Shown: positions 10,738-61,700 of the stretch, piece by piece
Layout: each line of letters begins with the position of its first letter
Numbering within the stretch: position 1 is the stretch's first letter
From: Ascidiella aspersa
Lineage: Eukaryota
DNA: 64,000 nucleotides
Reading direction: 5' to 3'
Assembly (NCBI GenBank): GCA_963924565.1
Contig: OZ004610.1
Span: forward strand, 9,920,001-9,984,000
Notes under the pieces: model-generated
What the model was told of the DNA's origin: nothing
The model's database searches: none
What the model saw: the letters and a program-made list of their open reading frames with translations, nothing else
Position numbers and translations under genes: made by a program

Positions 10738-13700
10738 ATGGATAGCAAGGGAGTGGGCAACCCGACAAAAGAGGAAAATGCCACCACAAGTTCGCAAACA
10801 AAACGGCAGAGTACGTCCGCGTCAAGCGCAGAACAGAATGCTGCAAACACAGCTGGGAAACCGCCAACGGCAAAAAGCGCCAAGCCGAAGATCGCTGATA
10901 GACGTGGGACTCGAGAACGGCTTTCCAGCACCGACTCTTCCTCCTCAGGAGGAAAGAAGAGGAAGGATTCAGTGGGAGTTCAGAATCGGCGCGACGTCAA
11001 ATCCGAGCTATCTTCCATTTCGGAGAAGGCGGAGTCACAAACAGGGACTCCGAGCCCGGAATTGCAAAAAGACGTGGCTCGATCGTCCGTCAAGTCATCC
11101 GACAACCATGAAGACGTGCCGGCGTCCACTTCACGTGACAGCGACGTGACGACTACGCAAACTTCGCAAGGCAAACCTGCCGCCGCCAAGCTCTCCAGAC
11201 GCAGCTCTTCGGTGTCCGTCTTCACGACGTCCGAAAGCGAGTCGGGAAGGACCGGCTCTTCCAGCGGGAGCACGACGTCCTACTACACGTCGGGGTCCTC
11301 TTATTCCACCGTGTCCGGGCCCACTAAGAGCACGCGCACGGAAGGCAGCACGGTTACTTCCAGCCAGCAGCATCCACCCAACCTGTCTAGGTCGAGCACG
11401 GCTGGTAATGTTGTGGTGGGCGACGCCAACAGTCGCTTGCTTCGCATGTCGCTCATGCGCGAATGGACGCAAGTCGAGATAACACTGCGTTACATGGCAA
11501 GGGCTGACCCGGGCCTGTTTGTTGTTGATGATGTAAGTATGACCTACACATGGCTATAGGAAGTCAATACGTGTTGTCCGGAGTCATGACTTACGTGAAA
11601 TTTACGGAGTTACGTCACAGAAAATTTAGTCAACTCCGAATGTTTACCTATTATTTTGAGAAAAATATATTTTTCCGAGTGGAACAAGTTGTGTTGCTGT
11701 TAATAGTACAACATAGATAAATGTGTAAAAAATGTAAAAAACAAAATAGTTTAAACAGAGTTTTTGCTAATTTTTTCTTGACTATGGTACGCAGTAACAC
11801 GCATTATAATACAGCTTCAAACTATATGTGATTTTTATCGTTACTTTAGAAAACCGGAATGAATCCTCTCATGCTTGCATCACGTGACAATCGCATCGTG
11901 GTGGCCGAACGTTTGCTTGATATGGGAGTCAACGTTAACGACAGGGCCAGGGTAAGTTTTACATTTGTTTTGTTTGTGTTGTATAAATTGTTGTTTCTTT
12001 CCTAATGCAGCATGAGGTTAAAAACCGTCGATTTAGAGAATTATACAAATTTAATTATTATGAGAATTATATCTTGTAAATGTAGGTGACCGGAAAAAGC
12101 TATAAAGTGATGAACTAACTTTATCAACACGTATATAAATAGGCAACGAAAGCCAATTTATAAATACTAGCCTACCTTCGACAAGAATACTCAATTCACA
12201 TTTATTTTTTATTATCCGTTATACCTTCATGCTCATATTAAAGAGAACGGCATTTTAACAGTAATGTTTGTTTTACATAAAAATGTTGGCATACAATAAC
12301 GCAGTAAATCAGGTGGTAATACTGAATAGTGAGCAGGATACACCCTGCCTTCGGAAATGCTTATTGATAACATTATATGCGCACATGCGTATATATTTTT
12401 ATTTGAAACGTGTAATTTGGGTTTATCCATTTCTTTAACTTGCATAAATTCTCACAGGAACTGTAAGACCTAAACATGTCAAACGTTTTCTGGTATGTCT
12501 TATTATTTTGTATACGGGTTTCTATATAGCACACGCTTTCTGGTAGCGTTTTACTTAGTCACGCATATCGTGGTATAGAATGCACAATTTACCTGTCAAA
12601 TTGTAATGGACGTTCAAATATTGGCTTTGTAAAAAACAGGGGCATTTCAAAGATTAAGCAAATATTTTCTTTCTACTTAATCATTCGTTCCAGAATTTCC
12701 GGGTGATGGTGCAATTTCGCAATGACCCAAATACATAAAAAATGTCTGTTTGGTATCACTAATGAAACGTCAATATTTTTGACTTCTCATTATGTTCCTT
12801 ATCGTTAACAAATGTACTCTACATTGCTTAAAATACGTTATATGCCTTGAAATAACCCCCTTAACTTTATGTTTTATTGTCTCTTAACCGATATTTAGTC
12901 CGAGTACTGTGCGACTATTTTTCTTACCAAAATGCTAGCGCTTCCCAATGACAACACAAATTATTATTGGACCGAATGTGAGTATAGAGTGGCAATTGTA
13001 TCACAAACCCGTTTAAAATGCTCCGCACAAAATTATAAAACAAACTTTTATTTTGATGTATTTATCCAGGACGGCCAAGCCGCCATTCACTTTGCCGTCG
13101 CATCTGGAAGAGAGGACATCGTCAATCTCCTTATTAAGAAAAAGGCTGACCTAACCCTTAAGGGCGGGGTGAGAACACTGTGCAATGTACATGTTTATTT
13201 TCCGATTTAAAATACTCTCGTTAAACTGTTTTTGCTAATAAAGGAGAAGCAACAGTTGCCACTGCACATTGCTTGCGCTCGGACCGGCAACAATTCGGCC
13301 GCCATTACCCAAACACTTTTACGAAGTACGCCAAAAGTGAAAAGGCTCGAGCCAGATGAGGTAAGGAGTGTATATATTTAGTTTTAAATCTATATTATGT
13401 TTATATTTGGACCTGATCAAAAAAGGCCAAAGTCACAATATTCGACTAAATTGACATATTTCGCTGTTTAAAAACATTTCTGGAATAGCTCACACCATCG
13501 ACAGCGAATAAGTCAACCGATGGTGGCGTAAACTATTGCTTGGACGTTTGTAACAGAGATTGATGTCGATTTAATCAAATAAATGGATTTAGTATTGTAG
13601 TTTCTAAAAACTAGTATTGTTTTCCATTTTTTATACCTGTCTTAATGATCTTATCGAATAACTTTTATCGAAAAATAAATGCAATTTGATAAGCTCCCTT

Positions 13701-33145: not shown

Positions 33146-34566
33146 CAAGGCGACTGGGCGCGACGGATGTTAGGCTGTTTCCGGGACGTGTGCAAATTGG
33201 CTCTTTAACGGTGTATTGTTGTTATGCGTTTGGAGGGATTTAAGGCACCCGAGAATACCTTAAGATTTGGGCGTTGTCCAAGAACCCTTTTAATTCACCC
33301 AATTCAAAAATTCACATATTACCAGTTTAAATAAAATTTATGTATTACAGATATAAACAAAATCCAAGCATTACAGATTCAACATTATTCGTTTTTGTTA
33401 CGTCAACAGATATCAGTCTGATTTTTTTATTGTTTCGCGTTTCTTCATTTTGCAGCAACTGCTATTTGAGTGTCACATGAAATTGACAAAGGTGCCCAAT
33501 ATGGTTTACGCTGCCGTTCTTCAATTACTACAAACAAGGACTTCTTGGAAATATTTTATTTAATGCACCCCGGCAGCGTTTAGTGCGTTCTTGCCATTTA
33601 CATGTGTTCCATTTATGCATCATGTCGTCGGGACATTATAAATATATTATAGTACATACACACATATATATATATAAAGCGGTGGCGCTGTGTCTATCTG
33701 AAAACATCGCTTCAGTAATAAACGTGATATGCAGATTAAAGGCGAAAGAGGCCTGTTCATTGTCTGTTGTCGTTTTATTGATATAAAGTTAAGGTTTAAG
33801 GCCAAAGCGTCCGAACAGTTTAGGAACTTCCGTGTCATCAGATAGTATAGTCATAGTGCGTGCGGTAATGAACGCTTTATCAGCATGCGAAATTGCGCAG
33901 TTTAAGTGTGAGCCGTTTGTTTCTTCTATTATAACGAGGTGGCGCCGTTGGTTTTCAATTACACATCATATTTTATTAATGCACTGCTTTCCATTTTTTC
34001 GATAATAGCTAGTTGAAAATGAGTTTAATATGCAGACTTCTATCAATAAAGCAGGAACAAAATCGCATTAGTTGGGAAAACTGTGAAATGCACTCCGGGA
34101 AAGCTTCAGCCTAACTCGTCAGGAAGGAATTGCGCTATCGCCAAAAACAATAGACTATTTGCATTACGTCGAAAGCTTGCTTCCTATACTCTTGGAAACA
34201 TATGGACATAGTGGTTATAGTGTCACATGCTGTCTGCTGGTAGTCAGATCAGGATTGCTGTCGGTTGAGCTATAAGTGTAACAGCGCTGTCATTCAGCCA
34301 ACTCAATTATTTGTCAATAACAAATAGAGGCAAATAAAAGCTCGCGTATATAGATAAATATAGAGTATGAAGGCAAAATCGATTCTCTGCTGAACAGAAC
34401 AAACTTACGACTAAATTTCAACTTTTGCTAAGCGTTTTGTCATGTTAATATAGCTTTATGTCTCGCACGTACGTTTGAAATTTTTGTTGAGAGCAAACTT
34501 TATTCCATTTCATCGACTATATTTAGCTACAGGTGAGGTTAGCTTGTCTAAGTACTTCAGTGCACG

Positions 34567-37500
34567 ATGAGGTATTTCACGTACATTCTTGTTTTGGCTG
34601 CCACTATATCGATAGCTGTGGGATACGAGCCAGTTTTTGGTGATTACCTGGAACGGGACCGGGACTACTTCGACAGCGAGGTTTCGGATTTTTTCGAAAG
34701 TGTGATTGACGGTGAACAGCTGGGCGACGAAAGCTACCTGTATGCGAATGACGACGTGGAGGAAAATATTTTGACAAGCGACAGCGACCGGTTAGACGAG
34801 GCACCAGGTTTAAAGGATGAGGACTATTTTATGTTCGAAGGTAAGGGATTATCTGAGGATTTGATTTTTGATAATATTGTGCATAGTTTTTGAATATTTC
34901 TCTCAGGTAAAGAATACAGCGCTATTAAACATAAATATTTGTTAAATTTATTGCAATCGAAACTGATGCCTTCTGGCCACTTATACTTTTCATTTTACTA
35001 AGAATGGGAATGCCATATTGTTGGTCTGTTGTCAATTTTGTGTTTTCTCTAAAAAATGGTATGCTATCGTTTCTAAAATGCCACGTAAATCTTGATGTGG
35101 CAAAATGAATTACGCTTCTAGCCAGTCGTAACTCATGTTAAGTTTAAACACTTGGATGCGGTTGTCAAGCTACAATTTTATAGGTTTAAAGAAAATAAGG
35201 AATTGTTGAGCCACTATAGGATAAAAAGTGAGTTCCATTTATAAGATATTGTCCCTTAATTACTTTACAAGACATGAAAGTTTGTTATATTTAAAAATTA
35301 TATTATTTGTGCTAAATTATTGCGCTTGGCATAAATTTTATTTCCCAAAGATTTGCCGAATGTTGAAGACGAAATGGAAGTGACTCTCTATGATGATGAT
35401 AATGATGGTTTTCAAAACGATTTTGACACAGATGAGAGGGAGAAGGAAAACTCAGAAGATGACACAAAAATGTAGTTTTTTACCAAAATATTTTTAAGTT
35501 ACAGAAAGCTCGCCAAAATTAGGGCGTGGGTAAAGTGCCACTTTTCGCAATTTTAAGAAATACGGTACGCAAAACAATAGTTGACGGTTTTAAAATTACC
35601 AACAAATTTCTATAGTAAGATAAATAGCCAACTACGTTTCTATAGTAAAATGTACTTTACGCCAGGACTGTAACAGTTTGCAGGGAAGAGAAAAAGACAA
35701 AGTAACTTTAGTTGAGATTTAATTGAAAACTAAAAGTTTTTATAACGTTGCAGTTCGACCGACCAGTTGTCGATGAGCGACTCAATTAACATCACCCTAA
35801 AGATGCCTGACGTGACAATCAGCTCGGTGAGAAGTTGCAGTAGGCCTAGGCCCTCGGCCAGTGATTCCCAAACTGTGTGCCGCGGCACACTAGTGTACCT
35901 CAAGAGATTGTCAAGTGTGCCGCGAAACTTTTTGTAATATCGGAAAAGAGAGTATTTGCATTACCAATAGGCATACACGCAAGCATTTTAGACTTAAATA
36001 CGCACTATTCGTTAACATTGTACAGTGCAAAGAGATTTAGAAGGCATTCATAAAAGGTCGAATAATATAAAAGCAAAAGCAAACACTCATCTATGTTTAA
36101 ACGCCCACGCATGAGCCATATCTTTGATATGAAAAACAAATTTAGCCTATATCGTTTATAGTTAATGGCAACGCCATATGTTGTAACTTCGAGATGGGCA
36201 TTTGAATCTCTGCAGCATGTTAGGATTTTTTACTGGTTTTGTTGGTAATATTATGTTACCTTTGTTAATAGGATGACACATATCTTTGTACAACGGTGAA
36301 AATTGATAACTACAACCCGACGAAGACACTGTACATAAGTAAGTTTAAAATATACCCTGATAAATTGCATCAAGTTATCAACATTAACATGCAGCAGTGA
36401 TTTAAATAGAGTATACAAATCCCAAGTAAACGCCATCTTCACATACGGAGTAATTAAAACAAATACAACGTAGTAAGTCAAACAAACAACATAACAGGAA
36501 TTTGTAAAAAAAAATAATAATAATAATTTTAATGTTATTTCAGCTGGTTACACACCACATGCGATACAGAGCGTTGCACATCACATGTTGTTGTTTGGTT
36601 GCACTGAGCCGGGAAGCAAGGAGGCTAAAGCGTGGTAAGTCGTGATCTCTTTTACACCATATTCCTCAAGAGTTTACACGATATTCCTCAACCTCGTTTC
36701 GCGGCGACCCGAATTTAAGCGTATACCAGCGAAGCATCGGAAACCTAATTCTCTGTACTCGATCTTAAATAAAATAAGACATTGGCCTAAAAAGATATTT
36801 GGTCTAAAATCTAAATGATTCAAAAATAAGTTCAAACAAGACATGCCTTCGCGTTGCTTTCGGGAATTTTTTCTAATTTACCAGAAATATTTGCTCTAAA
36901 CAATATCATACCATCATATTATGATTGGTTTCTTAATTTTTTTCCGTTTTCTTCAACCTTTCTACAAATTTCTGCTTTCCATTCACCGAAACAGTAAATA
37001 CATAAAACTGAAGCGGGCCACATAACCCTAATGTACCCGGCATAGAACAAAAATATTACGGATGACAGTTTAATACCAAATGACGTCATTAGTACGTCCA
37101 AATGTATCGTTTTCCAGATAAATAAGCCAAAATTTGCTTCTGCGTCAGGAACCTTAGTTTTTTTTGATTGCCAGTTTATGCTATATTTTCCTAATAATTT
37201 CTGCTATATTTCCTAAACCCTATAATAGGGATGCGCTTATAGTATAAGTATAAGCGGCCTCAAGGCAAATTTACATACCCTAACACACGCCCGAAATTAT
37301 TAGAAGCAAGCAAACTGACGAAACTTCGAAGTTGGTCGCCATTTTTTGATTTACGATATTGCCAAATGCTTGAATGCCGTCGCTATGCCTTCCTCGAAAA
37401 ACAGTTAACCCACAGTAAACCGTTGCGCAGGAACTGTGGAGGTACGATGCACGGAAAGAACTCAGAAGGCTTTGTTGCCGCTCCGGTGTGCGCCAAGGGT

Positions 37501-40500
37501 AGCAGCATCTTATGGGCCTGGGCAAAGGACGCCCCATCGTTTCAACTACCTGAGGGTGTCGGATTCCAGGTGGGCCATGGCTCCAGAATCCACTACCTGA
37601 CACTTCAGGCCCATTTCAAGTCGAAGGTGGCGGCAAACCGTAAGTAAACTGCTGGAGGTCCACTGGATACATACTGACGAAGGCGAAAAGTAAGACTTAA
37701 TATCAAAGTTAATTTACACAGTAAGACGTAGTCTTCCAATGGGGAATTTGCGTTTAATTATAACCTAACCGTGATAACGTGACGTCATTAACATGGTGGC
37801 GGCGATAAACAAACTGTGATTGTTATGAGGTGTAAGTTTTCTTTGTAAGCAAGGTTACAGTTTTATAGATAAATAATACCAACGATCAAGTTTATTGTGA
37901 CGATATTTTGGCTAATCCAATATTTTATGGACAAGACAATTTTATAAGTTATTTTTATATTCGGCGGTGATGGTAAATTTTCTCCCCTTACTTTTAATCC
38001 ACTGCTTAAACGTACAGTTAACGTGTTTGTTCATAAGGTTACCTGACCAATGACCATACATCGATATCTCGAGGTACACGCGAGTCATTTAAAGCAAATA
38101 TAAAAAAAAAGTACGAAAAAAATTAGGGTTTTACATGTTCAACGTTAACAACGCCTGGGCGCGATCAAAGCTATGCCTGTCTAAAAACAATTTTCGCCTG
38201 ATGACAACTTCAGGACATAATTTGTACCTTTTGAACAGCACATTCATTTGGGGCCAGTCACTCAAAATAAAACTAAAGTTTTTTAGAAGATATGAAAGCA
38301 CTCAGGAAAAGTAGTAAATTATACTAATAAAAAGTAAATATCTGCAAAAAATAAATAAGTATTTATTCGGACTGTTCATGAGAATATATAAAAATTATAA
38401 TTCCAATTAGGACTAAATAAACATATATCGTTTTGTATTTTTTTTACAACAGACCACATCCTTTTTTTAATTTTTAAAAATGTTTTAGGACAATTAAAAA
38501 TATATATATTAGAATTGTTTTCGGCGCTTTCCGAATTGAATATTTTTGCGATTGGGTCTATTCGTATTGTACTATAAAAAAATTTGAGAAAAAATTCACA
38601 AAAAAAATAATAAAAGCTGTCATGTTCCAACTATATAACAAATATTTATGTCCAAGTTAGGCGCGAGGGCACAATTTAATTTTATCATTTTGAATTTTGA
38701 GATATAGGCCTACATTAAGTTGTGGCCAATTCTATAATATTTTTTTACAAATTGTTTGCAGAAATCTCCTTGTTTTTTTTGTATGAAAAATGGCTAATAA
38801 AAAAGTTATATTATTTTAGATAGTTTTTTTGTTTTACCTAGTTTGGTTACCATCGTATAAATTGTATTATGCTAATATACAAAGCTCCTCTGTATATTTG
38901 ATTTTCGTTACGATGAATCCGAACAAACAAGGCCTCGTCAAAAGCAAATTAATTTGTGTGCGCAGAATACGGCATCGATAGAATTGGAGTAACTGCGTCA
39001 GCAACAACGGTTGTGAAACCCAAGGTTGCAGCAATATATCTTCTGGCAACATCTTCAGGTTCAGTCCCACCGAATTCCAGACAAGAAATGGACATTATTT
39101 GCAAGTAGGTTACGCCGACACTGCAATAGATACAACGCACCCAACGGCGACCCGTGATCAATTACATTGCATCTATGCAATCACGACAGATCCATAATTT
39201 TTGTTCGGGAGGGAAAGGCATAACAACTTTGATGGTATCATAACGCTACTTTACATCATAAAACAAGTATAACGTCAGGACACTTGTCCTTTATAATTAA
39301 GGGAACGCGTTGCGTCCATTTGCGCGAAATATTTTCGATTTATTTTATTTACCTGGAAATAGTTTGTATTTAGGAAACCTAGCGCATTGAGAACACAATA
39401 AAGATTCGCATAGCCTACTATACATGTATATATTCCTTTTTATTAATAGTTGTTTGTCTATACAGAGATACCACGTACAACATCGCGCGAAGCGCAAAAA
39501 GCCGACATTGCCTTTATTTTAGTAAATTTGTAGGCTGTTCGGTGTTAGTCAATTTTTAGGCTGTTCGGACTACTTTTGTTATAGAAGGGCCGTCTTACTC
39601 TTGGTGTTATCTATATAATAAAAAAATGCATTTGTATGATAACGTTCGCAAAACTTTTTTTTATTATACAATTTTACGCACGGAGCAATCGGAGCATGTT
39701 ACCAAAACACACAACACGGCAGTTAAAAAGATGTAGCAAATAATTACGAAGTTATGTAGTTCAAATTGGCATTAAACATACATAAGATATAGTGTGCCGC
39801 CCCTGAGTGCAATATAATATGTTATTGGAAATAAAACCGAGATAAAAAAAAAATTACTTCTGTTTGTAGATACAAGGGAAACATCGTCATGCATCCGTTT
39901 GCCTTTCGCACCCACACTCATGCCCTCGGTAAGGAGGTGTATGGATACATGGTGAAGAATGATAAATGGTCCCTTGTAGGGAAAAAGGATCCACAACTGC
40001 CACAAGCCTTCTACCCGGTTAAAAATAAGAGTATGGAAATCAAGAAAGGAGACTGGCTGGTGAGTGCACTTTTGCGAAATTCCTTTTTATTTCAGAAGTC
40101 CTGAAATAGATATATGAAGGTTGTAAATAAAATAGCAGTTTTTTAGTTATGGTGCCAATTTTGCAAAGAAGGGTTCAAAATGTTTGCACAAAAGAAAAAC
40201 ATTAGAGCGTTTGTTAACCCAGAGCTTTGAACATTTGTTTTAGCTGTTCGTGAAAAACATAAAAATCGACCAAGACAATATTATTTAAGTTGTAATAAAA
40301 ATTAACGGGCAGCTGTAATATCCACAAGATTTTAAAACTTATAGCCTACGTCTTAAAGGAAACATTAACTATACTTTTTACTTAAACAAATTAAAAATAT
40401 TCTCCTACTTTCGCGACTGTAAATTTGTGAACAATATCATGCTGGCATAGATTCTTTCGGGATGAGTTTTATGTTACCGTGAGGTTTGATCACAAGAAAA

Positions 40501-41360: not shown

Positions 41361-44212
41361 CTCTAAACAATTACACACAGTTTGAAATTTGAAGCTTATA
41401 GTTGAAATGGAGATAGAGTCAAAGAAGCTGGCACAGTACAGGAAGAAGATGGTTTCTACACAATCGGCAATATGTCAAATACAATTATGCCTAACTCGTG
41501 GTACGATTCAAAATATTATGCTCACCAATTCTTTGGGGAACCGGGAGAATGTGAAGCAATCAGTGTTATGACAGTTACAAATACCAAGATTGAACAAGCT
41601 GAAATATAAGAGATTTTGGCGGACTTGGTGGTGTGCAATGCATCCATCCATGTGTAACGAACCTCTAACACAGGGTTCGGCAACCTTTTTCTAGTTGCAT
41701 GTCAATACCAAACTGAGAAAGACCTCGGCGGGCCACACAAAATGTTAACTGAGAATTGTGTTATTGAAATGTTAGAACAACTGTGAATCAGGCGGGCCTC
41801 GGATTTTTTTGCACTTAAAGACGAGTTTGACTACATTTAAGGAGGCAGTAAATTGTTTGCGCGTTTGCTTTTTTCGAGTCCACACGTCGTCATCCGTACT
41901 ACTAATGAAAAGTCTAGTAAAACTACTTTAAAAAAACGCGATAACTTTAATGGTGAATCTAATTTAGTGCTGTTAACTTTTGAAGTCCGGACGCACCTTG
42001 CGAGCGAAGCGCGATTTTTTTTGGTATACCGGTGCCGGTATTTTTTTAATTTGTTGAAGTTTTTATTACATTGCCAAAAATACTAAAATGTTAAAAAATA
42101 TATGTATAATATTCTTGAATACGTTTTCCTTTTGTCTTTTGGAATTATATAGCGGTGTTGCAATGACTTAAACTCAAAGATTAGATTTAAGCTACTGTTT
42201 TCAAACGACCGTATTTTGGGCAAAATGACTTGACTTTGACGTAAGGTATTGCATCAAATGACTTCGGTTAAAATCAAGGGAGTTAATTTAACATTTTATT
42301 ATAGAATTATTATTTGAGCTATTTATCTCATTTTTTGCACGTAAAACGATCAGATTGCTGCTTGTTTTTTTTTACTTGAATCGGACGACCTTGCAAATTT
42401 TAATAATTTATCGTTTTATTTTTATATTGGCAAAAAATAATTTGTTCGGCCTTGATTTATTATTTTTTGAAAAAAATTCACTCGGCTGGGACCCGGGTCA
42501 TTTTGAAATTACTCGCTAACGACACTGTTCATTGTATGGCGGTCATCGAAATGTTCTCATATTTATTTGAGTGTAAAAAAATGTCTGCCGAAAGGTCCTT
42601 TGCAAACACCAAACTTCAAACTTTTGGCTGCATATTAGCAACAACAACATAAAAATACTTTTAAGGAGCCTACGAATTTTCGAAAAGCCATTAAAACTAC
42701 AAAATACACAGTAGAAAAACTTTAAATCGTTGCACGGTATATGTTTGTACGCGTGGCTCGAAATTCTCAAATCTTGTTAGTGCGATTTAAGTGAAAAAGC
42801 TTGCGGGGAACTGACGTTACGTGCTGGCATACAATCGTTTTTTTTAAGTTTATGGCTATAATATGTTGTATAATACAATTGACAACTAGTGTTTACTTTT
42901 ATTTGATTTTGCCACTTGCGTTTTATTGTGGCTGTAACGGCAACAACATTCGCCGAAATCAGCGATTTGCCGGCCCGACGAATTTAAATCGCTTCTATAG
43001 TGAGGGTAAAATCTTGCCTCTTCGGCATTCAAGCCGAGAATAATGGTGTTATATTCATTTTATGTCAAAGAATAGAGCCGTTATTATTTCTTTTAGACTA
43101 TCAGTAACAAGCAGATTTCCCAACACGCTCTTAACGTTGTTCATTTAAAAACAAAAAACATAACAAAAAGGGTAATTTGACTTACAATATAAAACAGCAA
43201 CAAGAAAGAAGTATTGCATTTGAAATTGTGAACAGCAAAGCTCTTGAAAAGTACTCGTGCTAAAATGGCCAAACTAATGTTGACAATATTCGATACATTA
43301 TAAACAATCACACACCTATACAGGGGTAACCGCGAAAATAGGCAGCAACAATGACGCACACAATTACAATGCTATTCCGGGTGGGATCTTTGGAATGTGC
43401 TAAATGTATTTCGAACTAATTTGTTGCAGCCAGGGTTTTCAATTTATTTTGGACTATTGACAAATGGATGGGCCCACTCTCTGTAAAAACAGTTACTAAG
43501 TACTTGGCGGTATTGTGTAGTTACGATGCAACTTCGTTCACTTTGGCTAAGATTACTGGCGACTTTGACTGTAATTGTATAGGATGCCGCAAACGTTATT
43601 AATATGCAAACAAAAACTGTTATATACTTTGATTAGAAGTAAAATTGAATTGGTGGCGATTTACGGGTATAACGTCTTCGGAGGTATATAGAAAGAAAAA
43701 ACACGATTAAAAGAAAAAAACAACAACAAATCAAAGTGGTTTAATTTCACAATGGCGTATTTTATACACTTTAATCGGTGAAAACTTGCAACATCTAAAG
43801 CCACTCGTGACTGTGAGTTCTGTGTAAAACGAATAACATGCATCAAAATATCAAAATTTCTGACTTGGTAATGCGAAGACGCAGTTCTTTTACGTGTATA
43901 ATGCCGACTCATTGTTAGTCTAAAATCTAAATACCAATACAGCCTTAAAATTGTGCAAACAAATAAAAACGAAGACCGGCTTCATAACGCAGCAGCGCGG
44001 TAGTGCCAAGGCACATATCAAGGCTAAGGCTGTCGGTGGGTACGCGAATATTACAGGGCCAGCACGATTATACCTTTATATTACCACGAATTCCATTTAC
44101 CATCATTCCGGCCGCTATCGACAACCTAAAAACACAGAGAAAAAGCTTGAAGACGCATAAAAGGAAACGGTAGGTGGTTGGTCTTCACTGGCGACAAGGA
44201 AAGAAGCCTTTG

Positions 44213-46971
44213 TCAAGTTGCCGTGTGGTGCTTACGCTTATGCTTGAGCATGTTGCTGCGCAGTGCAAAGCGTTTGTCGCAGATCAGGCAGTGGAAGGGT
44301 TTCTCGCCGGTGTGGACGCGCACGTGACGCGTAACGTCGGTGCGGTTGCTCGTGTAGCCGCAAATCTCGCACTTGTGGCTGGTGTGCTTCGAGCTGGACG
44401 GGTTGGTGGTGGCCACGACCAGCGGCGACGCCTTGACCGCTTGCTTCTTGGCCGACCGGTCCGCCTTAAGCGACAGGTAGGTCTGCGAAGGCGCGATCGG
44501 TCGTTATTGATTTGTAAACATTAGACTATATTTTAAAGAACGTGTCGTTTACACCAGTGCTTTTCAAACTTTTTAAAGATTTGTGGATAATATTGCCCTA
44601 CCAAAACAGCATTGATTATCACAAGTACAACTTTAGATATTTTAAGCTTTTGCATGACAACTCAACAATAATAAATATATCCATGACTTTTCAGTCTCAC
44701 ACTAGTAGACCAACAAGACGCCAACACTGCTAGTTAGGGATGACTGACACTTGGCATTTTATTCTGATACCAATGTCCAATATTTTTGACAAAAAGTAAT
44801 TAGATCGAAACTGAAACCAAATGACGCAAATATAAGCAACCCTGAAACCGTTCTAAGGTGTTTTTACCATGTTATTCAACCCAAATTTGGTTTGTCGTTA
44901 AAAATTAAGTTACCATCATTTTTTTTACATACTATTTTTTGATAAATTTACATTTAAAGGTAGAAATCGATGTGCTAATTTGCAAATTCATTACATTATT
45001 TTTTTATTTGGTATTGAATTGGCACTAGTACTACACTAGTGTCTGACACATTCTGATACCATCATTCAGCATTAGGTAGCGGCTCCCGTCAATATTATTT
45101 TTTATAAAGAAATTTATGGTTACATACATCCACAATAAAATGCTGATAAATATATAATAAATTGATTTTCTCACATGTGTTAAGGATGGGGTATTTTGTT
45201 GCAGTTTTTGCACTTGCATGTTGCTGCTGTATTGTGGCTCCATTTGTTGTAACTATAAATCGCAAATTGAATTGAAATATGTTTACATACTTAATGGTGT
45301 AAAAGCATCAGAAAAGTTTGGATAATTATATTGGAACATTTTACACATTTTAGAATTTAGTAAATAACTTCCTGTCATCACTAGCGAATAAAAAACAACA
45401 AGCAATAACAGGAAGCAAATAAATTAAAGTCAAGTGAACAAAGGTTGGACTGCTTCTGCTTTATGATACTTATGACAGCAAAAAAAGTATATTTATACTC
45501 ACAATAAGAGGACTTTTATTTTGCAATGTGGAATTCTGATCCAAAACAGCTAAAACATTGTAGGGTTTTGTAAAAGTTGTGTGAAAATGTCTGAAGCTAA
45601 TACTCTATTCCAGATTTAAAAAGTTGTAACATATGAGCTTGGTACATAAGTTTCTAAAACTTTAAATCAATATATAGCTATTAACAGAACACACTAAAAA
45701 CCTTTGATAAAAAATTTCTACTTAATTAAACCGTCTATACAATATATTTTAACCTGTAATAAATTACTAACTTTTAATAAATGTGTACCCAATCGGTGTT
45801 TACCTTGATGGGTGGCTTTAATTAGAACTTCTACAGAGTTTGTATCTGCTTCCAATTGTCCATCATTTGAGTTATTATCCACTAGTTCATCAGCTAAATA
45901 TAGTTATTTTTAGTCTTAGCTAGTGATACTAGTTGAGTGATTTCATATCAAATCACCCAACCCATAAGCATGAAATTGTCCGATTACTTTTCGAAATTGT
46001 CCGATTACTTTTTTGAAATTGTCTGATTACTTTTCGAGATAACACACTTTTAAGTTAACGCATCATTGCCACTAGAATACATATAATAGAATAGCTAATA
46101 TAACAACAAGTAAAATATTGCAACCTTCATTATCAGGCACAACTTCTTCAGTATTCTCATTGGTATAAATTGGTCTTCGGTAGGCTACTAGGGAATTTTC
46201 TGATTGACAACATGGTTCACTGGCAAGAACCTCCATTTGGTGTAATGCAGAATTTGAGGTAGAACTCATATTTATTGGCTCCACTGAAAGTAAATAAAAT
46301 AGCAATTAGTACAATAAAATCTGCATCCCTATAATTTTAGTATAAAATAAAAATCCAGTTGAAGATGTTTTTAATATTATACCAGTAAGGTTTTCCGCCA
46401 CTAATTCAGATGAGGAATTTAGATCTTGGCTCGTTGTGTCTTCCTGTTGGTCCTGGTGGAGTGTACTGTTAAGTTTCAGTGAAAAAATATCACTTTTTAT
46501 TGAGAACATCTCAGTGTACAGTTGCGTGTGCATTTCTTTGACCATATGCTTTAGTTCTTGCATTTCATCTAAAAGGGAAGACATACAGAGCACATCTCTG
46601 TATGCATTAAATCTTGGTATGTGTCGACCAGATGAAACAATTTGTGGAAGAGAAGGCATTTCTTTTTTAAGCAAAAATAAAATGTCATCTAGTGCTTGTT
46701 CATCTTTGGAAAAGTGTTCATCGCCCACAGGTACGTCACTTCTTTTCTCCATGGATGACAGGAGTTCTTTCAGCATCTTTATTGCCATGGCAATATCGAG
46801 AGAGGAATATGTTTCCAAGCACAGTCGGCGTATACTGGGTGGGCTCATGGTTAACATATGGTTATAAATGAAACATAGCAAATCATTTACAATCACTTTA
46901 CTTGCTGAGTGCTTACCCATACCAGAACTACTGGTTGAGGTATAGCCGTTTTCAACCATTTTTTCCAACAT
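44213..46971 (-). CDS. C2H2 zinc-finger protein (~410 aa) with an N-terminal helical/coiled-coil domain resembling non-LTR retrotransposon ORF1 proteins
   Basis: Phase-consistent GT-AG exons (minus strand): 46971-46383, 46283-46125, 45893-45804, 45549-45503, 45252-45175, 44482-44213 (1233 nt). Two fingers CEICGYTSNRTDVTRHVRVH-TGEKPF-HCLICDKRFALRSNMLKHKRKH. A splice acceptor sits at 46986-46987, just upstream of the ATG. Confidence 0.8.
45972..46035. repeat. Intronic tandem repeat, 3 x ~21 bp (GAAATTGTCCGATTACTTTTC)
   Basis: Three consecutive near-identical units read directly from the sequence. Confidence 0.85.
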
Positions 46972-47112
46972 ATTATAGTACTACCCTGTAAAACAAAAAT
47001 CGGTGATGGTCTAGAATCACTAACAAATTTTCATTTGGGGGTTTATATTGCTATTTGCTAGCATTATTTGGGTTAGGGTGCAAGTTAAAGTTGGGTTTGG
47101 GTGAGTCAAGAG

Positions 47113-47863
47113 TAGGGTTGGCAAGCCTGTCAATTGACTGGTCAAATTACTGGACAATTGACTGCACTTTATTTAACCGGTCAAATACTTATATTGGATT
47201 CAAATGTTGTAAATTTGAGTTTTTAATAATCTTGATTGTAACTTTTTTAAAGAATTCAAATATGAAATGGTAGCGTTTACCTGATGCAAACACATGTTCT
47301 GTGGTAATAACAAAGTGTTTGTAATAGCAAAGTAGATTTATTTTGTTTAGAACAACTGCACATATATGATGAATCGCGCTTGTCATAAAAGGAAACACTA
47401 ATTGGGGTATACCACAATCTGAGGCAACTTAGAAATTTAGAAGAACCAAATGCCTTATCTCCAGTGGACCCTGGTGATGATTTAGAAAATTCAAAGTGAC
47501 AAAGGGTGTGACGAGGAGTAAAAATATTTTTTTACTGATGCATTTACTTGTTGTCAAATTCAGGGAATAAACTTGTTGGCTTAACTCTGTGGTTGTAGTA
47601 AAGGTAAAAATTACTACAATACTGCTATAGTATTACTTGCAAGATGGGCATGGTTTTGCAAAAATTCTTATTGATAGTCAAAAAATAATTGTTTTTGTTT
47701 TACAAACCATTGTACTTGAGCCAAAACGTTCATATATTTATTTAACGGTGAAATCAAGGTTTATTTTTAACTTCAATTGCATTATGATAGTGTGTATAGT
47801 ATTTGACATATTTGACCGGTAAATTGACCGGATTTTATTTGACTGGTCAAATGCCCAACCCTA
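47113..47863. mobile_element. hAT (Ac-like) non-autonomous element upstream of the zinc-finger CDS
   Basis: TIRs TAGGGTTGGCA...TGCCCAACCCTA; perfect TSD gtcaagag; repeated subterminal TTGAC(C/T)GGTCAA-like palindromes at both ends. Confidence 0.88.
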
Positions 47864-50032
47864 GTCAAGAGTTATTATTATATTTATTCTCCTATATTTC
47901 TTTCTTTATTTCTTGCAATTTAGGTTTTGACCACTGGTTTCGTTACTGTAAAAAAGAGGTAGGATTCTAGACCAGCTCCCACAAATCTAACACGAAAATG
48001 ATTTGAATATTTTGCAATGTTAATTAAAAACATATTGTCTATGAGTGAGTCACCGCAAAAATTTAGGAACTAAAATACATAATAACTGCCTACTACGATA
48101 AATTTTACAGCAGCAGTTACTATTAAAAAAATTATCGCAATGACACAAACCGCAGTCGAGTAGAAATATGAAATAACACTAGCATCCAAGCTGAATTCGC
48201 GTTTGAACGTTTATACACTAGAAAATTACTACCACCCTTGTCCACAGAAGGCAACAAGGATAACCTAAACGTACTGCGCCTATCTCGTACCCATATCTGG
48301 AAAAGCAGTCGAGTCATGAGTGTTTCGTGAGAGTGACTTGACTCGTGATTCGTGACTCGCTCAAATTTCGTGACGTCATTCGATTTCGAGTAGGATTTAC
48401 GAATCCATTTGACCGTTAACTTAGACTGGTTGCGGGTCCCTTTATGGTGAATAACATATTTTAAAAAAGTTTTTTTCATTTGTGTTTTTTTAACTTTCTA
48501 ATGCACACACGGAACCAATTTTACTGTCTATGTACGATTGTACGTTTATTAAATTTTGTATTTGCGAATCAATTTGGGTAAATACCCCCATTTGTTACAA
48601 TCTGTACTGATCTGCATAACTTGAACATTGATAAATTGTGTTTCTAGCAAATTCAATAATTTTCAAATACGAAAATAATAAGAAATACCTCAGCGGTTCA
48701 ATTAGAATTACAGCACAAACCATGTGTACGTAATTTCCTATATTTTGGCAAATAACTATTAATTGAACAAAGAAAAAGTCAATTGCTATAGGCCTACATA
48801 TATGGGCTACATACTACGTAACTACGGTACATCAAAACGATTTTTTTTCCAAAAAACGAAATCAGCCTTATTTAAAATAAGCCTACCCGAATGGAGAATT
48901 TGGCCCCAAAAAACTAAAAGTACAATGCAAATTGGGTTTTACGTTTTACCTATGAACACAACCAGGGGCAAAACTATAAAATTGGCGCGCTTCATCCATG
49001 TTGAGTTATATTTTTTATTGCATTAACATAATATACCTTACTTTATACGGAAAAATAAATCAAATTTATTAGAATATTTGTATTTAAAGAAGAAGCAGTC
49101 TCAGTTTGGCATTTGCAAGCCACATTTTTGCGCCCCTGTACTTTGGCGCCCGGGGACATGTGTACCCCACCGCCCCCTCCCTTAGTAGCTACGCCTCTGT
49201 CTATGAAGAATATATCACCTCTTTGCATTAAACTTCATCTTCATTAAGGAATTTTGCCACGGGCCGAATTGATTGACCCGGCGGAACGGATCTGGAACGC
49301 TGGCAATAGTTTTATAACCTATAGCCATCGCTAGAGTTTAAAATTATAGGTAAACCCTGAAAAAATCTTCATAAAATTCCGAATTAAAGAGACGAAATAC
49401 AATATTGCCTTGATGAATCGGATATGAGTCTCCCGGCTCATGGGTATTTTGTTATGTAGTAAGCTAAGCAAAACAGTTCAATTTTAGCAGTGTTTTTATT
49501 CTTGTTTAGCCTGGCATTTCATTTTAATATGAAAATGAAATGGCGGTAAAACATATTTGTCAGTTTTTTGTAGAACCGTTTATCGGGAAGACCGTGTACG
49601 CTAGGCGTAAGGTGCAGACAGACAATTTCGCTATGTCTATCAACATGAAATTTTAACGATGGACTTAGGGCTGTACAATAAAGGTTTACGGCACACGTTG
49701 CGCTATAAACTGTTTTTTAATTTGTGCCACGGAATATAAAAACGTTTTCATGGAGCTTTTTTCTTTGGGTCTGGCTGAAAATTTTCTACTTAGGCTATTA
49801 ACGGCATCAGCACCCGTACAAACTACCTACTGCAGTGTTTCTCAACCTTTTTGTTCACGCGACCCCTTTTAAGTTTTCGATAACTTGCGCGACCCCCAAT
49901 TATAGTGTATCATACCTAAACCTGAGTAAATAAAAAACACATTTTAAAAGGGAAAAAATCCAGTCTAGGATTGTATCAAAATTTGGCTAAAATGCGCTAT
50001 GCACAACAATAAGCTAAAGTTACGGTTTGAGC

Positions 50033-51713: not shown

Positions 51714-52313
51714 TTACGATGGCGGAAGCGGAATGTTAAGCAAGGTTTGCTGGCAAGCTTGCGTTTGTGCATACTTTCCGTTGCCACAATAATCGTGGAG
51801 AAAAACCAATGCGAGATTTTTAACGCGCTGGCTGTCGGACTGCGCAAAACGCTTCATGCAGTTAATCACAGATTGCGTTACAACCCTAGAGCGAGATTCG
51901 GGGACGATGAGTTGCATAAGTAAGGTGATGGACGAGGTAAGCGTTTCCTCATTATCGCTCGTCAAGCAACGGACGGCGTACTCCACAGCCATGCTGCAAT
52001 CCAAAATCAGTCGTCGATTTTCGGCGTCAGCGGCCAAATTACAAAGGCCTCCGACAGCGAACTGCGCAAGCTTGCTGTTGACATCTTCCTCGAAATCGAT
52101 ACAGTCAACAAACAAGTCAATTACGTGCAGGTCGCGCAAGTAACCGAAGTTGATGGGGTCGTACGAGAAGTTGGCGAGATTTGCGAGGACTTGCAGTTTC
52201 GCGTCGAAATCGCAGCTCTCTTGAAATTCGCTGACGAGCGCTTGCAAGTAGTCGGGGCGGTTCAGGTCCTTGGCAGTGGTGCGCCGACGCAAGCGCTTGT
52301 TTGTCGTAAACAT
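51714..52313 (-). CDS. ARMC7: Armadillo repeat-containing protein 7 (minor-spliceosome-associated), intronless, 199 aa
   Basis: [56 protein letters not shown] matches the ARMC7 signature ([37 protein letters not shown]). Confidence 0.92.
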   Translation of the reverse strand: [199 protein letters not shown]

Positions 52314-55739: not shown

Positions 55740-58700
55740 CTACCAAAGAAACCTGTTGCTTTTAGGTTTCACTTTATCAAAAATAGCACAAAAGAGTGCC
55801 GCTTCTGTCAATAGAATAGCACTTGCAGTATATTTAACAATGTCCTTCGTCTGTTGAGCTGAATCTTTCTTCAAGTGATCCTCTACACCCAGATACTCAG
55901 CAACTTTCTCCTTGTAAACAGAAACTTTTTCTGTTGACACTGACAAAACATGCTGTATTGTCAAAACACCGGCCATTACTTCCTGGTCATCAGCTTCAGT
56001 GAAAAGTTCAATGTCTTTAACTGGAAACGTGTTTTCCAGCCTGTCATCATCAGAACGTAAAATGTATAGATTTTCACTGGTCAAAAACAGTTCAGCTTTG
56101 AAGTCTACACCAACTGAACTGAACATTTGGACATCCAATGTGGCCAATACAGGGAGATTTCTCTTGCCTTGTTCTTTGCAAATAATCTTGTGGTAGTACT
56201 TGCTTGCAGAATTTAAAAATTCCTTCAAAGGCTTTTCTTTTGTTTTATACCGAACAGTCTTGTGTACCTCAAGACCAGCCTTGAGAAGAATACTTTCTCC
56301 AACCTTTGACAAAAGGCCCGCTGCACCTCCAATTGGTTTGGTCACAACTTTGACAAGTGCTTTTCCAACTACCTTGGTATATCCCTGTTTTTCTTTCTCT
56401 TCAGATTCATTTTTGAGGCTATGTTTAAAACTTGCAGTGACTGCACTGTGTTGCAGTGACTGATTGGCAGGTTCTAGATTTCTAGAAATTCCACTTGCAA
56501 TGTTGGTTATTGATCTTAAAGTTCCTGATGAGAAATGCTTCAGCAGAGAAGACACTCCATGAGCAAAACCACCAATGAAAGCTGTGGGGCCTCTCGAAAG
56601 CCCTTGGTATGGCATGACTATAAGATCTGTCACACCCTGTGCAAAACTTCTCAGTGTAGTAGCAGGATTTCCAAGAATGTCCAGTGAACCTAAAACCCAG
56701 CCAGCTCCAAACACAGCATCAGCAAAATAGTGCCTTGACAACTCTTGGACAAGTTCGTTTACAGTGGTATCGACATCACAGCAAACAAACTTCGAAAATG
56801 ATATGGCCCCTCTGTCAACTGACACATACACTTTTACGTCAGCTCTGAGACTAAGGAGCACAACAAAAGGGTGAACTGTCAGGGAGGAAAACCGAATCGG
56901 ATGGGTTACAGTAAAAATTTCACTTTTGAGAGAAGGTGAAATGAGATTTTCATCATGTGGTAACTGAGGCATAAAACTTTGAACTGATTCCAAGTACGAC
57001 TGCAGAAGAAGTGACAAGGTTCCAGCAAATGAGCCTTCTAACTTAAGCTGTATTGCACCTAATGCTATATCAACTGAGTCAAGCAGAAAGCACTCTGTTA
57101 AAGTTACATTAAATAGCAATGCTTTGTTGAGATTGTTTGTGGAATAAGTCGGACAGGACCACAGAAATACAGGAAAATCAGGAGCAAGAAACAGTTTGTT
57201 GTCAAGTTGAAATTCAGATAACGAAAGAACAACATACCATGATTTCGATAAAGGGTCACTTAAAGCAGAAAATGCAAGTTCAGAGAGGCAGATGTGCACC
57301 ACATCTGTGGGAAGTGATGCATTACTTGCATCATCCACCATTACCAATTTGACTTCTTTCAAATCAAGGCTTAGGTTTAAAGACATGCGGTCCATTTGGT
57401 CTACTTCGGAAACAGGATGCTTTTCTTCATCTTCATGTATTTTTATGGAAATGCAGCTGGCTTGTTTTGATACTGTAACATGCTTAAATCCCAGACCAGG
57501 TATTACAAATTTGTCAGTATAATTGAAGTCTGATACTAAAAAGTCAACCCAGTTGTTCTCTCCTTCAAGTGCAAACTGGAGTTTTATGGATTTGTTAACC
57601 CTTCTACACCTAGGAAAGCTCTCAGCATCCATATAGCTTTCAAAAGCAACATATTGGCCTGGAGATATACTGTGTATTGCAGAGGAAGTCACTTCGTCAG
57701 TCACTTCTCGAAAACACAAATGACATACTGTATCATTATGAATCTTGTACCGATAGCAGGTAATATCACTGAGAACCAGATACAAATGGTCATCTTCTGA
57801 GTGCTGTGTAAAAAGAAACTTTGTTACTTGAGCATCGTCACTGCTTCCTTGAAAATTTACTATACGTTTCACAAAGCTGTCTTTGACAGAAACAGCTGCA
57901 GAGGATTCATTTACATAGCAATACACGGAGCGGTCAGTAAAGTAGGATGACAAACTGGAACTATTGCCTGCATTTTCTACACAAATAAAAGAAGATGATG
58001 ATTCATCTGCTGATGATACAACGTTTTCACCTGCTTCTTCCAGAACTTCTTGAGCAATTAATGTTTGTTGGCTTTCAATCTGCCACGCTAATAGTGGTAT
58101 TGGGGACTTATTGTTGACTTCCAAGGCTGATCCCAAGTCGCAAATTAATTCTTCGTTTTGATTTACACAACCCTTTACTCTGAGATGAGAAACTGTTTCA
58201 GTGTTGTTTAAAAACCACCAAGTAGGAGAAATTGTTAAAATAAGTATGCCATGCCGTACACAAGAACTCAGGGTTAAATCTAGTATAGTTTTCTGCTTCC
58301 TTATTAGGACATTGTGAATGCTGTTAGGAAGAATTTCACCATGCTTCAAACTTTTCATTCTGGCAGGATGATCTGAAATGGAATTGCCAATCAGGTACAA
58401 CTTTTCACTACAGCAGCTGTTGCTAACCTGCAACCGAAAAGAACTATTGAAATGATGGGGCACCTCAATGTTACCAGGCTGAATGATGGTGATGGCATTT
58501 CCGGCAGAAATTAGACAAAGCACTTCACTTGTTTCATTTGCAATAAGGCACCAAGGTGTTATTTCCACCAACAGGGAATTGTTGAAAAGTGACAAATTTG
58601 CATGGATGTTACCATCACCGGCAGACCATACATCAGATGAAGAATCATTGTAGGACCTGTCATTGTATGGAAAATTGTTTTCCAATTTGCGGATTGGTTG

Positions 58701-61700
58701 GGATAAGTCGTGAGTCTCGTCCATTGAATACACCAGCGAACCGTGAATTGGAATTTTTGAATCGAAAGGGGACTGATTTTGATTGACTTGAATGGTAAGG
58801 TGGTGTGTTATGTAGGGAGATAACTGCAAGAGAGGCAGTTCTGTCCCTCTTCCAAGAATGTTTACAATGTAGGACTCACCTTTACTACGAGTTTCAACGT
58901 GAAGATAGGATGGTTTTGGTAAATGTGACCTTACACAAAAATGTGGCACTAATGTAATCCTACTTGTTAGTCCATCTCGATAATAACAAGCCTGACAGTA
59001 GATAGTATCTTTTACCTCATTCGGAAATTTAATTGAAACTGTATTGCCATTTGTTTTTACCAAATTAGAGATAGACAGTTTTTTCGGGTCATAATTGGTG
59101 CCAAGCACCTTAAAAGAAACGGTTGACACACTTGCTAGTTCCCAAAGAAAATCAAACGATTCATTTGATTGCAAGGCATACTCTTCTCTTGAGTCATCCA
59201 AGAACATTATCTGGCATTGTATATTTAATGGCAACTGATTAGTAACCCTTGTCTGCCCATTAAACACAAGAAAGTTCTTTGTTGGTCCAGAAAACTTTTT
59301 CTCAATTACTAGTCCATTAACCTGGTCTACAGTGCACAGCAACACTTCTTCGCCAATTGCAGAAAATGAATCTGACCAAATCCAATCAGGAACACCTTCG
59401 AGTGATACATGCAGTTTGGTATCAACTTTATGCGACCTCCAAGTGTAGGGCACAGTTTCACCTGGATCCAAACTTAAACATTCATCAGTCAGTGCTTGAC
59501 CAAACAGGATAGCTTTTACGGTGTTGTTTTTCACCTCTAAGCAGGTTGTGCCCTGGTTTGGCACATCTTCGGTAAGATTTGACAGTAGATAGGATAGTGT
59601 ATGAATAATCTTTTGGCTAACACGGATTTCCACTACATTGCTTTTGCTAGTACATGTCATGTCAATGGACTCTGTGTCTTTTTTAGCATGCATGCTGTAA
59701 AATTGCAGAGGAAATACTGGCAAGCAAGTCAGATTGCTGATGTCAACCACATTAATTGAAAGGGAAAGAGTAGAATCTATCACCCCGAGTACATCTTGTC
59801 CATGATTCCAAATGCGAATGGCAGCATTGATATCATTGACTTGAAACCAAATGCATTCCAAACCAGAATCAATGTATGCTGCATCTAATCCATCAAGGTT
59901 AAACTGCACTGTAAAGTTTGGTACAAATCTTGTGTTAAATATACTTTCTACTTGCATTGCAGCAGCCAGAGTCATGATGGATATCTTGCAGGAATCTGTG
60001 TTTTCAATTGCAACCCTCCACTTTGAAGAGCTGATTACTTTGTGGAATGGAGTAAAGTCATCAAACAGATTAAATTCAACTTCATCCGATTCTGACAATT
60101 CAAACTTTTTAATTTGGACATACGACTGGGTTGCATGATCAAAATATTCCAGGCCACACAGGAGTGTATTACCTAAGTGAGAGCTGGTAAAAGGCACTGG
60201 AGTGATGTGCACATGTCTAATGGCATTTGGTTTGCTGTAACACCAAGACATGTAGCTTTTCTCTTCATTATCTGAAAAGACAATTTGGTTTGATGTTGGT
60301 TCTTGTTTATTTGACACTATGTAAGTGTAGCTGCCTGTGCGAAGCTCGTCACTGTTGGAAACAGAAACATCTTGAGCAAACGAACTGGAAGACGAAGTAA
60401 CTTGGAAATGTGTGGATTTATTTTTCTGGGCAACCATGCCGGACCATTTTAACAAGTCTTGGTATATGCTTAACACAGCTTCAATTACACTTTTACTAAC
60501 AGAAGTTTTTAATTTGGTAATGTGAAAATCTGTTTTGTATAGTAGATGAAAATCATTTGACAATTTCTGAAGATGGCAACTTGCAATCAGCGTAACTGGA
60601 TAAACCAATGGAGTAAAGTCACTCTTTTTGCTTAACTGCATTTGTATTGCCAAATTTTGTACCTCACCATGAGCATTAATATTGTTCAATGAGCAGTGAG
60701 CATTAACTGTAAGACCATCTAAAGAGCAGCGCAGTGAGTTTAAAGCACAATTTACTTCTGCTACAACTTGGTTAGTTTCCAGTGAGATACTGGAAAACAG
60801 CTTTAAAGTTGATGGCCCATTGCCTGTTGAAACATAGGTTTGGTGGACTTCTGTCTTCGGAATAAAGTCATCTGTGATATTATGCAGAACATTTGCAAGG
60901 TTTTCACTTAGGTTTACTTTAACTGGGCGGCCAACCATAGCTTTTATGATGGCTTTGTTTGACAAAAAATGTTGTAAAGTCACAGTAGCAAATGAAGAGG
61001 GAACACCAGTTCTTCTGTCTGAGTCACCAGGTAAAGTTTGAAAAACATTTCTAGAAAAACAGGATTTCTCATGCACTAAACTTGCTTTAATTGTTTCATC
61101 ATTAGCCAAGTATATTGACAAGTCATGCAATTGTACTTCAAGACGTTGTTGAGTCCTTGAAATATGGATAACTACTGAAGGTTCACAAAAGAGAATGCAA
61201 AAAAGTGGCTTTACCTCTCGATCGTTGCTTCCAGGAACATATTTGTATACCACAATCTTTATATTATGTGCTGCTATTAATCCGTCCCCAATCAAGCTGG
61301 TTGAAACTGAAACCACTGGTTTTTCCCTGGTCACTGAAGATTCAGCCATACTTAAACCACTATCATTATGAGACAACTTTGGTGTCTTATAAACTTCCTT
61401 GCTTTTTGATAAACTACTGGTGCAGTCCTGCATCCAGTTTTCAGTAAGAGATTGCAGAACTTCAAGTTGAATTTTCGTAAAATGAAGCGTTACATCACTG
61501 GAGAAACTTGCTTCAAACGAAGGTCCACAAACAATTATCCATTTCTTCAATTTGTTTTGATACCATATGGATGGTGCAACTGTTGTTTGGAAATCAAAAT
61601 CCTGTACAATGGGATGAAATACAGGTTCATCGACAACATCACTTTTGCCTGTTAAATTCCACAATAGAGCTGGGTTATCATGGGGTATAGGTTTCGTCAT

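Follow-up and report, generated by a model that had tools for sequence, protein, structure and literature searches.

In this study we analysed a window of 64,000 nucleotides (nt) of the tunicate Ascidiella aspersa (assembly GCA_963924565.1, contig OZ004610.1, positions 9,920,001 to 9,984,000) and describe a gene on its minus strand, at 44213..46971 of the window. The gene joins a domain resembling the start of open reading frame 1 (ORF1) in long interspersed nuclear elements (LINEs) to a pair of C2H2 zinc fingers. The gene is real and conserved, and it probably adds a further form to the known captures of transposable-element domains by transcription factors. Sequence comparison shows its N-terminal domain and the beginning of LINE ORF1 to be homologous, and the domain was likely taken from a LINE in a tunicate ancestor. 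We consider it probable that this is a host gene with an ORF1-derived N-terminal domain, and that its product works as an oligomeric, sequence-specific transcription factor.

The gene model has six exons, which give a coding sequence of 1233 nt and a protein of 410 amino acids (aa) with no internal stop codon, and all five introns have GT-AG ends (Table 1). An earlier note, made from the letters alone, had pointed to a 589-nt exon with ORF1-like motifs, joined through four small exons to a two-finger exon; the exon is there with its motifs, and the pieces do join in frame. Run X3 is of unrecorded type, and we take it to be RNA because its depth is zero at 42500-42720 and 48467-48908, where runs X1 and X2 are evenly covered. 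Seven X3 contigs are listed over the gene. A de Bruijn graph simulation (k=31) of spliced and unspliced transcripts matches all 12 of their internal ends, including those of a 250-nt contig of exon 2 and exon 3. It also reproduces an offset of 2 nt at 45522, which arises only if exon 3 is joined to exon 4. The two outer contig ends were inputs to this simulation, and its unspliced path ran without intron 2 because no contig of that intron is listed. Run X4 is a raw stranded RNA run of which about 6% was read. Its first mates over the gene are mainly on the plus strand (exclusively so in most bins) at a depth of about 1-10, a pattern consistent with minus-strand RNA under the usual library type. 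The sequence index lists no RNA record. Independent support for the joining of the exons comes from homologs that carry both parts.

Exon 6 is the only two-finger ORF within the window, and the composition changes sharply at its border, with a G+C content at third codon positions (GC3) of 0.84 against 0.36 in the other exons. Because of this jump, the membership of exon 6 in the same gene was checked. Together with the matching jump in the observed/expected (o/e) ratio of CpG (1.19 against 0.45) and the fact that a joined exon 5-exon 6 contig is not among the contigs listed, it is what one might expect if a dead LINE fragment lay upstream of an unrelated zinc-finger exon, and the two did not form one gene. 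We regard such an artefact as very improbable, given that the six-exon graph accounts for 12 of 12 internal contig ends, that both parts occur together in three independent full-length proteins, and that the two nearest homologs share 52-62% identity with the domain. We also considered an alternative finger exon of the lola/mod(mdg4) type and rejected it, as the window has no other two-finger ORF and the homologs are fused. The CpG o/e ratio is likewise high in the 3' untranslated region (UTR; 1.14) and low in exons 1 and 2 (0.45 and 0.17), and the contrast between 44213-44482 and 46125-46971 may reflect the point where a methylated gene body stops. At the other end of the gene there is an acceptor-like site 14 nt upstream of the ATG (46986-47142), and the X3 contig passes unbroken into a repeat. 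The 5' end could be explained either by spliced-leader trans-splicing with the tip clipped or by a 5' UTR that extends into the repeat.

A phmmer search of the 145-aa domain against 1.84 billion representative sequences, run with one query and therefore not exhaustive, gave 20 matches: 10 host-type proteins, 9 LINE-type proteins and P0010, which was dropped as a low-complexity artefact. An alignment search found six further host-type proteins. One of the homologs (P0004) is the Phallusia mammillata protein 'ZF(C2H2)-5' (CAB3267995.1, 395 aa), which is 52% identical in the N-terminal domain. Three full-length homologs, P0004, P0033 and P0029, share both the N-terminal domain and the finger pair with the window protein. 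The window protein groups with P0004 and P0003 in the tree (93/90, unstarred), and it shares the domain order and finger signature of the Phallusia ZF(C2H2)-5 orthogroup; so far as sequences can tell, the Phallusia protein is likely its ortholog. The host gene would be tunicate-wide. In the other host-type matches, where they can be compared, cluster mates diverge past the coiled coil into Phe/Ile/Leu-rich tails. Tails of this kind are expected where a gene call reads on past a splice site into intron sequence, and they hint that in these proteins, too, a single exon holds the domain. The earlier note had raised the possibility of an undescribed lineage-specific family; the gene already has a name in Phallusia, its domain remains nameless, and an expanded family is not shown, the depth being that of a single copy. 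Two almost identical host-type proteins of 310 aa (P0021 and P0032, 308/310 residues) lack fingers and are possibly a finger-less paralog; in them the domain occupies 166-289, behind a long N-terminal extension, and the coiled coil is shortened. Among the SCAN zinc-finger proteins, SCAND1 is such a finger-less counterpart. No ortholog locus was found in a scan of metagenome contigs and none in a scan of viral contigs. Word-index searches for longer proteins returned nothing, and these are insensitive, since one failed to return P0004.

The link to LINEs can be seen from both directions. An HHalign comparison of host-only and LINE-only profiles, the kind of test that the earlier note had proposed for its suspected likeness to LINE ORF1, aligns them over 130 columns (98.4%, E 5.4e-15) and bears that likeness out. 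The LINE-only hidden Markov model (HMM) finds the spliced model with E 1e-9 at a library size of 1.84e9. In turn, the host-only HMM matches 13 of 32 ORF1s at E<=1e-3, the best with 58 bits vs 8.4 bits for the best reversed control. P0017, a direct phmmer match of the window domain (E 1.3e-4), has its exact coding sequence in L004/L005, where an ORF2 with EEP and RVT_1 domains lies downstream. A scan with three LINE-type matches gave 32 such loci (L001-L032, several of them near-copies). With a cut-off of 80 aa, 25 of these have a downstream ORF, which carries EEP and/or RVT_1 in 20 cases and both in 11; neither domain was found in the downstream ORFs of L007, L008, L021, L027 and L028. At L027 the ORF downstream of the truncated ORF1 (5345-5767) is a DDE_Tnp_1_7 transposase, likely a nested insertion. 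The LINE ORF1 model has the same head and coiled-coil secondary-structure elements as the window domain, and its C-terminus is an RNA-recognition motif (RRM), both by PDB sequence search (best E 4.6e-4) and by comparison of the model with Prp24 (Z 8.8, root-mean-square deviation (rmsd) 2.1, 71 aligned residues). Two source organisms are named for the LINE-type records, Branchiostoma floridae and, for P0047, the moth Loxostege. The moth record is labelled 'Mutant cadherin' although it matches no cadherin. The cluster of an ORF1-type protein (P0042) includes an amphioxus model with an amidase domain, which is probably an artefact of the gene model.

RRMs are found in the ORF1s of many clades. 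In the ORF1s described here the RRM fold is present, and P0013 and P0017 have Cys-rich N-termini. All 11 RT-containing ORF2s (RT, reverse transcriptase) show the motif G[VT]RQG[GS].LSP.LF, which suggests the RTE group (Proto2/RTE-X-like) rather than CR1/L2. The CR1/L2-like donor of the earlier note is doubtful, as these motifs differ from the CR1/L2 motif. Proto2 is listed under RTE, including Proto2-1_BF, with reference names of amphioxus and Capitella type (PMC10294476). A search of the PMC11203168 supplement showed no Proto2 rows. The domains used to classify ORF1s include PHD, RRM, CCHC, esterase, Tnp22, coiled-coil and zf/lz (PMC4120745), and no entry like the present head was found in the available part of that classification.

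Several features set the gene apart from a LINE. No ORF2 was found in the 64 kb by tblastn with 12 ORF2s or by an ORF2 HMM, which with the five introns agrees with the earlier note's description of a normally spliced gene with no ORF2 beside it. The window holds no ORF1 RRM either, and the ORF1 profile matches the N-terminal part alone in the model and in the three full-length homologs. The exon-1 region is single-copy, with an X1 depth of 65 vs 58-62 (at 90% likeness). It also shows few differences between runs, namely 1 in 760 for the exon-1 contig of X3, where three intron contigs have 60 in 1374, and 4 in 1199 for the exon-1 region in X2 vs 85 in 3464. In an unrooted tree of 43 rows, 14 host domains stand on one side of a 100/100 branch and 29 LINE-type domains on the other, and the host clade is nearest to amphioxus ORF1. 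P0009, P0010, P0016, P0035, P0038 and 11 of the 32 loci (duplicates, near-duplicates or short sequences) were left out of this tree. The loop between helices 3 and 4 has a Lys plus Arg count of 1.1 in the 14 host domains vs 4.1 in the 29 LINE-type domains, which means that a basic loop is lost in the hosts. LINE-conserved residues K40, R58, G64, K67 and D72 (in 27, 27, 27, 22 and 28 of 29) differ from the host consensus, and R25, E29, T30, E67, S89, H93, E112, L116 and K117 are fixed in 12-14 of the 14 host domains.

We infer that the capture went from LINE to host because this is the most parsimonious reading of a wide distribution in LINEs, a single host clade and one intronless first coding exon. 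The reverse is conceivable, in which an old host oligomerisation module was captured by a LINE lineage and its host form was kept by tunicates. ORF1s do shuffle domains, such as the PHD domains found in some of them (PMC4120745), and in the unrooted tree a single long branch separates the host rows from the LINE rows. We nevertheless rate a reverse or shared origin as improbable. The 20 matches of the single, non-exhaustive phmmer query include no named host gene from outside the tunicates, LINE-type forms reach from amphioxus to moth, and the domain lies whole within the first coding exon, as a retrotransposon ORF would.

The AlphaFold2 model (AF2; mean predicted local distance difference test (pLDDT) 90.6) shows a four-helix head closed by two short strands and followed by a helix of 48 residues. 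The head has no Pfam family; a sub-threshold Pfam match of exon 1 to RIO1 (E 0.005) was treated as chance. No significant fold match was found with Foldseek against PDB and viral structures or with VIA, in searches where the coiled coil crowded the match lists and the head was not searched alone. PDB sequence search, Foldseek and VIA returned solely matches to the coiled-coil helix (Z up to 6.2) and weak matches to the head, such as ICEBERG (Z 3.3, rmsd 3.4, 71 aligned). This outcome does not show that the fold is new. In the ESM Atlas, features stayed <0.9, and the first three structural rows (TM 0.60-0.65, from arthropod and chordate clusters) are leads only. The earlier note had also proposed an oligomerisation domain, and the coiled coil is indeed predicted to self-associate in parallel, in a run with three copies. 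That complex prediction scored 0.42 vs 0.01 for the best of three controls and placed the interface at domain residues 106-145, with a contact agreement of at least 50% and a partner pLDDT of at least 72. In the calibration of the score, the mark was reached by 21/30 solved pairs and 0/23 single chains, and among eukaryotes by 17/29 pairs and 0/30 single chains.

Exon 6 encodes two C2H2 fingers (Pfam zf-C2H2 and zf-H2C2_2). The short finger 1 occurs in all four proteins compared (the window protein, P0004, P0033 and P0029). Across these diverged proteins the contact residues are nearly fixed, with N/T-T-D-R/K in finger 1 and L-S-N-K/R in finger 2. We propose that the 5' part of an ORF1, comprising head, coiled coil and start codon in one exon, was spliced to a two-finger exon, and that RRM and ORF2 would not have been carried along. 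A pair of fingers by itself covers only about 6 bp. The coiled coil might gather two or three chains and thus present 4-6 fingers on flexible linkers, which could read repeated short sites with avidity. The head has lost LINE-conserved basic residues and fixed surface residues of its own, and for this reason its docking partner is likely to be a host cofactor and not RNA. The targets would likely be stable host regulatory sites.

A different possibility is that the protein acts against LINEs, either because head and coiled coil co-assemble with the ORF1 protein (ORF1p) of the donor LINE family and so poison its ribonucleoprotein or because the fingers bind LINE promoters. The part of ORF1 that was retained is the assembly part; moreover, SCAN has been speculated to target capsids (PMC4592553) and L1TD1 associates with L1 ORF1p (PMC11925450). 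An anti-LINE factor seems unlikely to us, with only two fingers, single-copy depth, and a host clade that stands far apart from every one of the 29 LINE-type domains and no longer has the basic loop conserved in them. In particular, finger contacts that are nearly fixed in 4/4 proteins argue against an arms race with transposable elements. Thus, of the host transcription factor with a captured domain that the earlier note had imagined, the homology and the host gene with fingers hold up; the CR1/L2 donor is doubtful, and control of transposable elements is unsupported.

A number of observations weigh against our account of a host gene with a LINE-derived oligomerisation domain. For the transcript, there is no junction row for the gene among the 15 of 80 joints listed, the exon 5-exon 6 contig is missing from the list as described, and X4 depth is zero at 46699-46919. 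The X3 depth of intron-retaining contigs (14-31 vs 45-79 for exon contigs) counts as a further limit, and X3 shares its study with the likely source run of the window. For the homology, the LINE-only HMM reaches only 26 bits on P0004 and P0029 (E 0.5-0.8). The branch between host and LINE groups is about 2.0 long in an unrooted tree, so that direction is not shown by it, and the low variant count of exon 1 could come from haplotype sharing or linkage. The finger fusion is seen in four proteins only, the other host-type matches ending shortly past the domain, and Phallusia is the only named organism among the host homologs, so that the reach across tunicates is extrapolated from it. Finally, the complex run used three copies and its calibration two, and coiled coils can pass such a test through their likeness to solved ones.

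Table 1. Features of the zinc-finger gene and its upstream region (window coordinates)
Feature	Position	Strand	Remarks
Coding exon 1	46383..46971	-	ATG at 46971; 589 nt; entire LINE-ORF1-like domain inside; X3 contig end at 46383
ORF1-like head, residues 25-119	46615..46899	-	4 helices and 2 short closing strands; AF2 mean pLDDT 90.6
Predicted parallel coiled coil, a long amphipathic helix at residues 121-168	46468..46611	-	AF2, complex prediction
Exon 2, low-complexity linker	46125..46283	-	Gene model and X3 contigs
Exon 3, acidic linker	45804..45893	-	X3 contig of 250 nt = 1+159+90 nt
Exon 4, linker	45503..45549	-	Gene model and X3 contigs
Exon 5, Gln-rich linker	45175..45252	-	Gene model and X3 contigs
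Exon 6, coding part	44213..44482	-	TGA stop at 44215-44213; X3 contig end at 44482
C2H2 finger 1	44312..44371	-	C-X2-C-X11-H, 1 residue below canonical; contacts -1/2/3/6 = N T D R
C2H2 finger 2	44228..44290	-	Canonical spacing; contacts L S N K
3' UTR, minimum extent	43163..44212	-	X3 contig continues to 42883; AATAAA at 43448, 42927, 42903
High-copy repeat, likely miniature inverted-repeat transposable element (MITE)	47080..47976		X1 depth 8,000-20,000 vs ~62; between ATG exon and promoter-like stretch, outside protein
CpG-rich promoter-like stretch	48200..48450	-	TGACGTCA at 48378, four TCACGA; low-depth X3 contig 47931-48284

The promoter-like stretch would belong to the gene. Further short repeats lie at about 44730-45060 and above 48900, and intron 2 contains three copies of a 21-22 nt unit (45971-46040) with raised depth in X1 and X2. 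Elsewhere in the window, an uninterrupted minus-strand ORF of at least 2752 aa (55743-63998) has no Pfam match at 1e-3. We presume that it is VPS13B-like, and an intronless copy of so large a gene would be unusual. A single-exon armadillo-repeat ORF (51717-52313, minus strand) has a weak ARM_ARMC5 match. It is presumably ARMC7-like and lies closely downstream of TMEM14-like exons, with which it forms a possible operon. On the plus strand, a copper monooxygenase gene of PHM/PAM-like type (34552-37644 and on; Cu2_monooxygen, E 1.4e-9) is convergent with the zinc-finger gene, and ankyrin-like exons at 10717-25341 resemble, we assume, a NOMPC/TRPN channel. There is also a long CAA/CAG-type repeat at 2817-3396 with several frames open (poly-Gln or Ala/Thr-rich).

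The closest known protein is Phallusia ZF(C2H2)-5, which has the same architecture, a similar length (395 vs 410 aa) and identical finger contacts. It differs in being named for its fingers only, its N-terminal domain being without a Pfam family. We found no description of the domain or of its fusion to fingers in the literature, subscription papers not being covered, the parenthesised gene name not being searchable and the classic Ciona surveys of zinc-finger genes not being among the papers listed. A Styela transcription factor survey, in the part available, sorts C2H2 proteins into ZBTB and plain zf-C2H2 only (PMC8122590). The SCAN zinc-finger proteins likewise have a retrotransposon-derived multimerising domain N-terminal to C2H2 fingers. 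Their domain comes from the capsid of a Gmr1-like Gypsy long terminal repeat (LTR) element and is known from mammals and lizards (PMC4592553), whereas here the source would be a non-LTR ORF1, and their finger arrays are long, in contrast to two conserved fingers and a predicted coiled-coil assembly. Neither the window protein (E<=1) nor the 20 homologs (E<=0.01) have a Pfam match to SCAN. The capsid C-terminal fold gave no significant match, in lists that were crowded by the coiled coil and with the head not modelled alone.

L1TD1 is also a host gene domesticated from a LINE ORF1 (PMC11014241; PMC4161310), and one account calls it the sole protein-coding gene to have been domesticated from L1 (PMC11014241). 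It kept the RRM and binds RNA, whereas the window gene dropped the RRM, kept the N-terminal head and added C2H2 fingers. The L1-type combination of coiled coil, RRM and C-terminal domain (Transposase_22) has no Pfam match in the window protein or its homologs. A fungal effector family has been derived from LINE ORF1 as well (PMC4641428). The ORF1s of APE-type LINEs (L001-L032 and P0047) have a head and coiled coil that are homologous to those of the window protein and agree with them in predicted secondary structure, and differ in their basic loop, C-terminal RRM and adjacent ORF2. In BTB and ZAD zinc-finger factors, for example GAGA factor, an oligomerising N-terminal domain gives few fingers avidity. 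The window protein has no BTB or ZAD match, and its origin is separate. Repressors of the KRAB zinc-finger type have long arrays with diversifying contacts, in contrast to the two fingers with nearly fixed contacts found here.

The domain defined here has neither a Pfam family nor a solved fold match and is common to LINE ORF1s of distant animals, some of them misnamed 'Mutant cadherin'. Its stable host version is offered for structure solving. If a Ciona ortholog exists, as the Phallusia name hints, knockout, domain deletion and chromatin immunoprecipitation would be routine. One speculative idea, to which we give little credence, is that this tunicate effector still co-assembles with the ORF1p of active elements of its donor family, and so ties the sensing of a retrotransposon protein to sequence-specific gene control. 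If true, it would be to LINEs what SCAN is to its own source, with a connection to the element that still functions. DNA transposases are also sources of transcription-factor domains. If the account given here is true, non-LTR elements would join these sources, and would do so in the sister group of the vertebrates.

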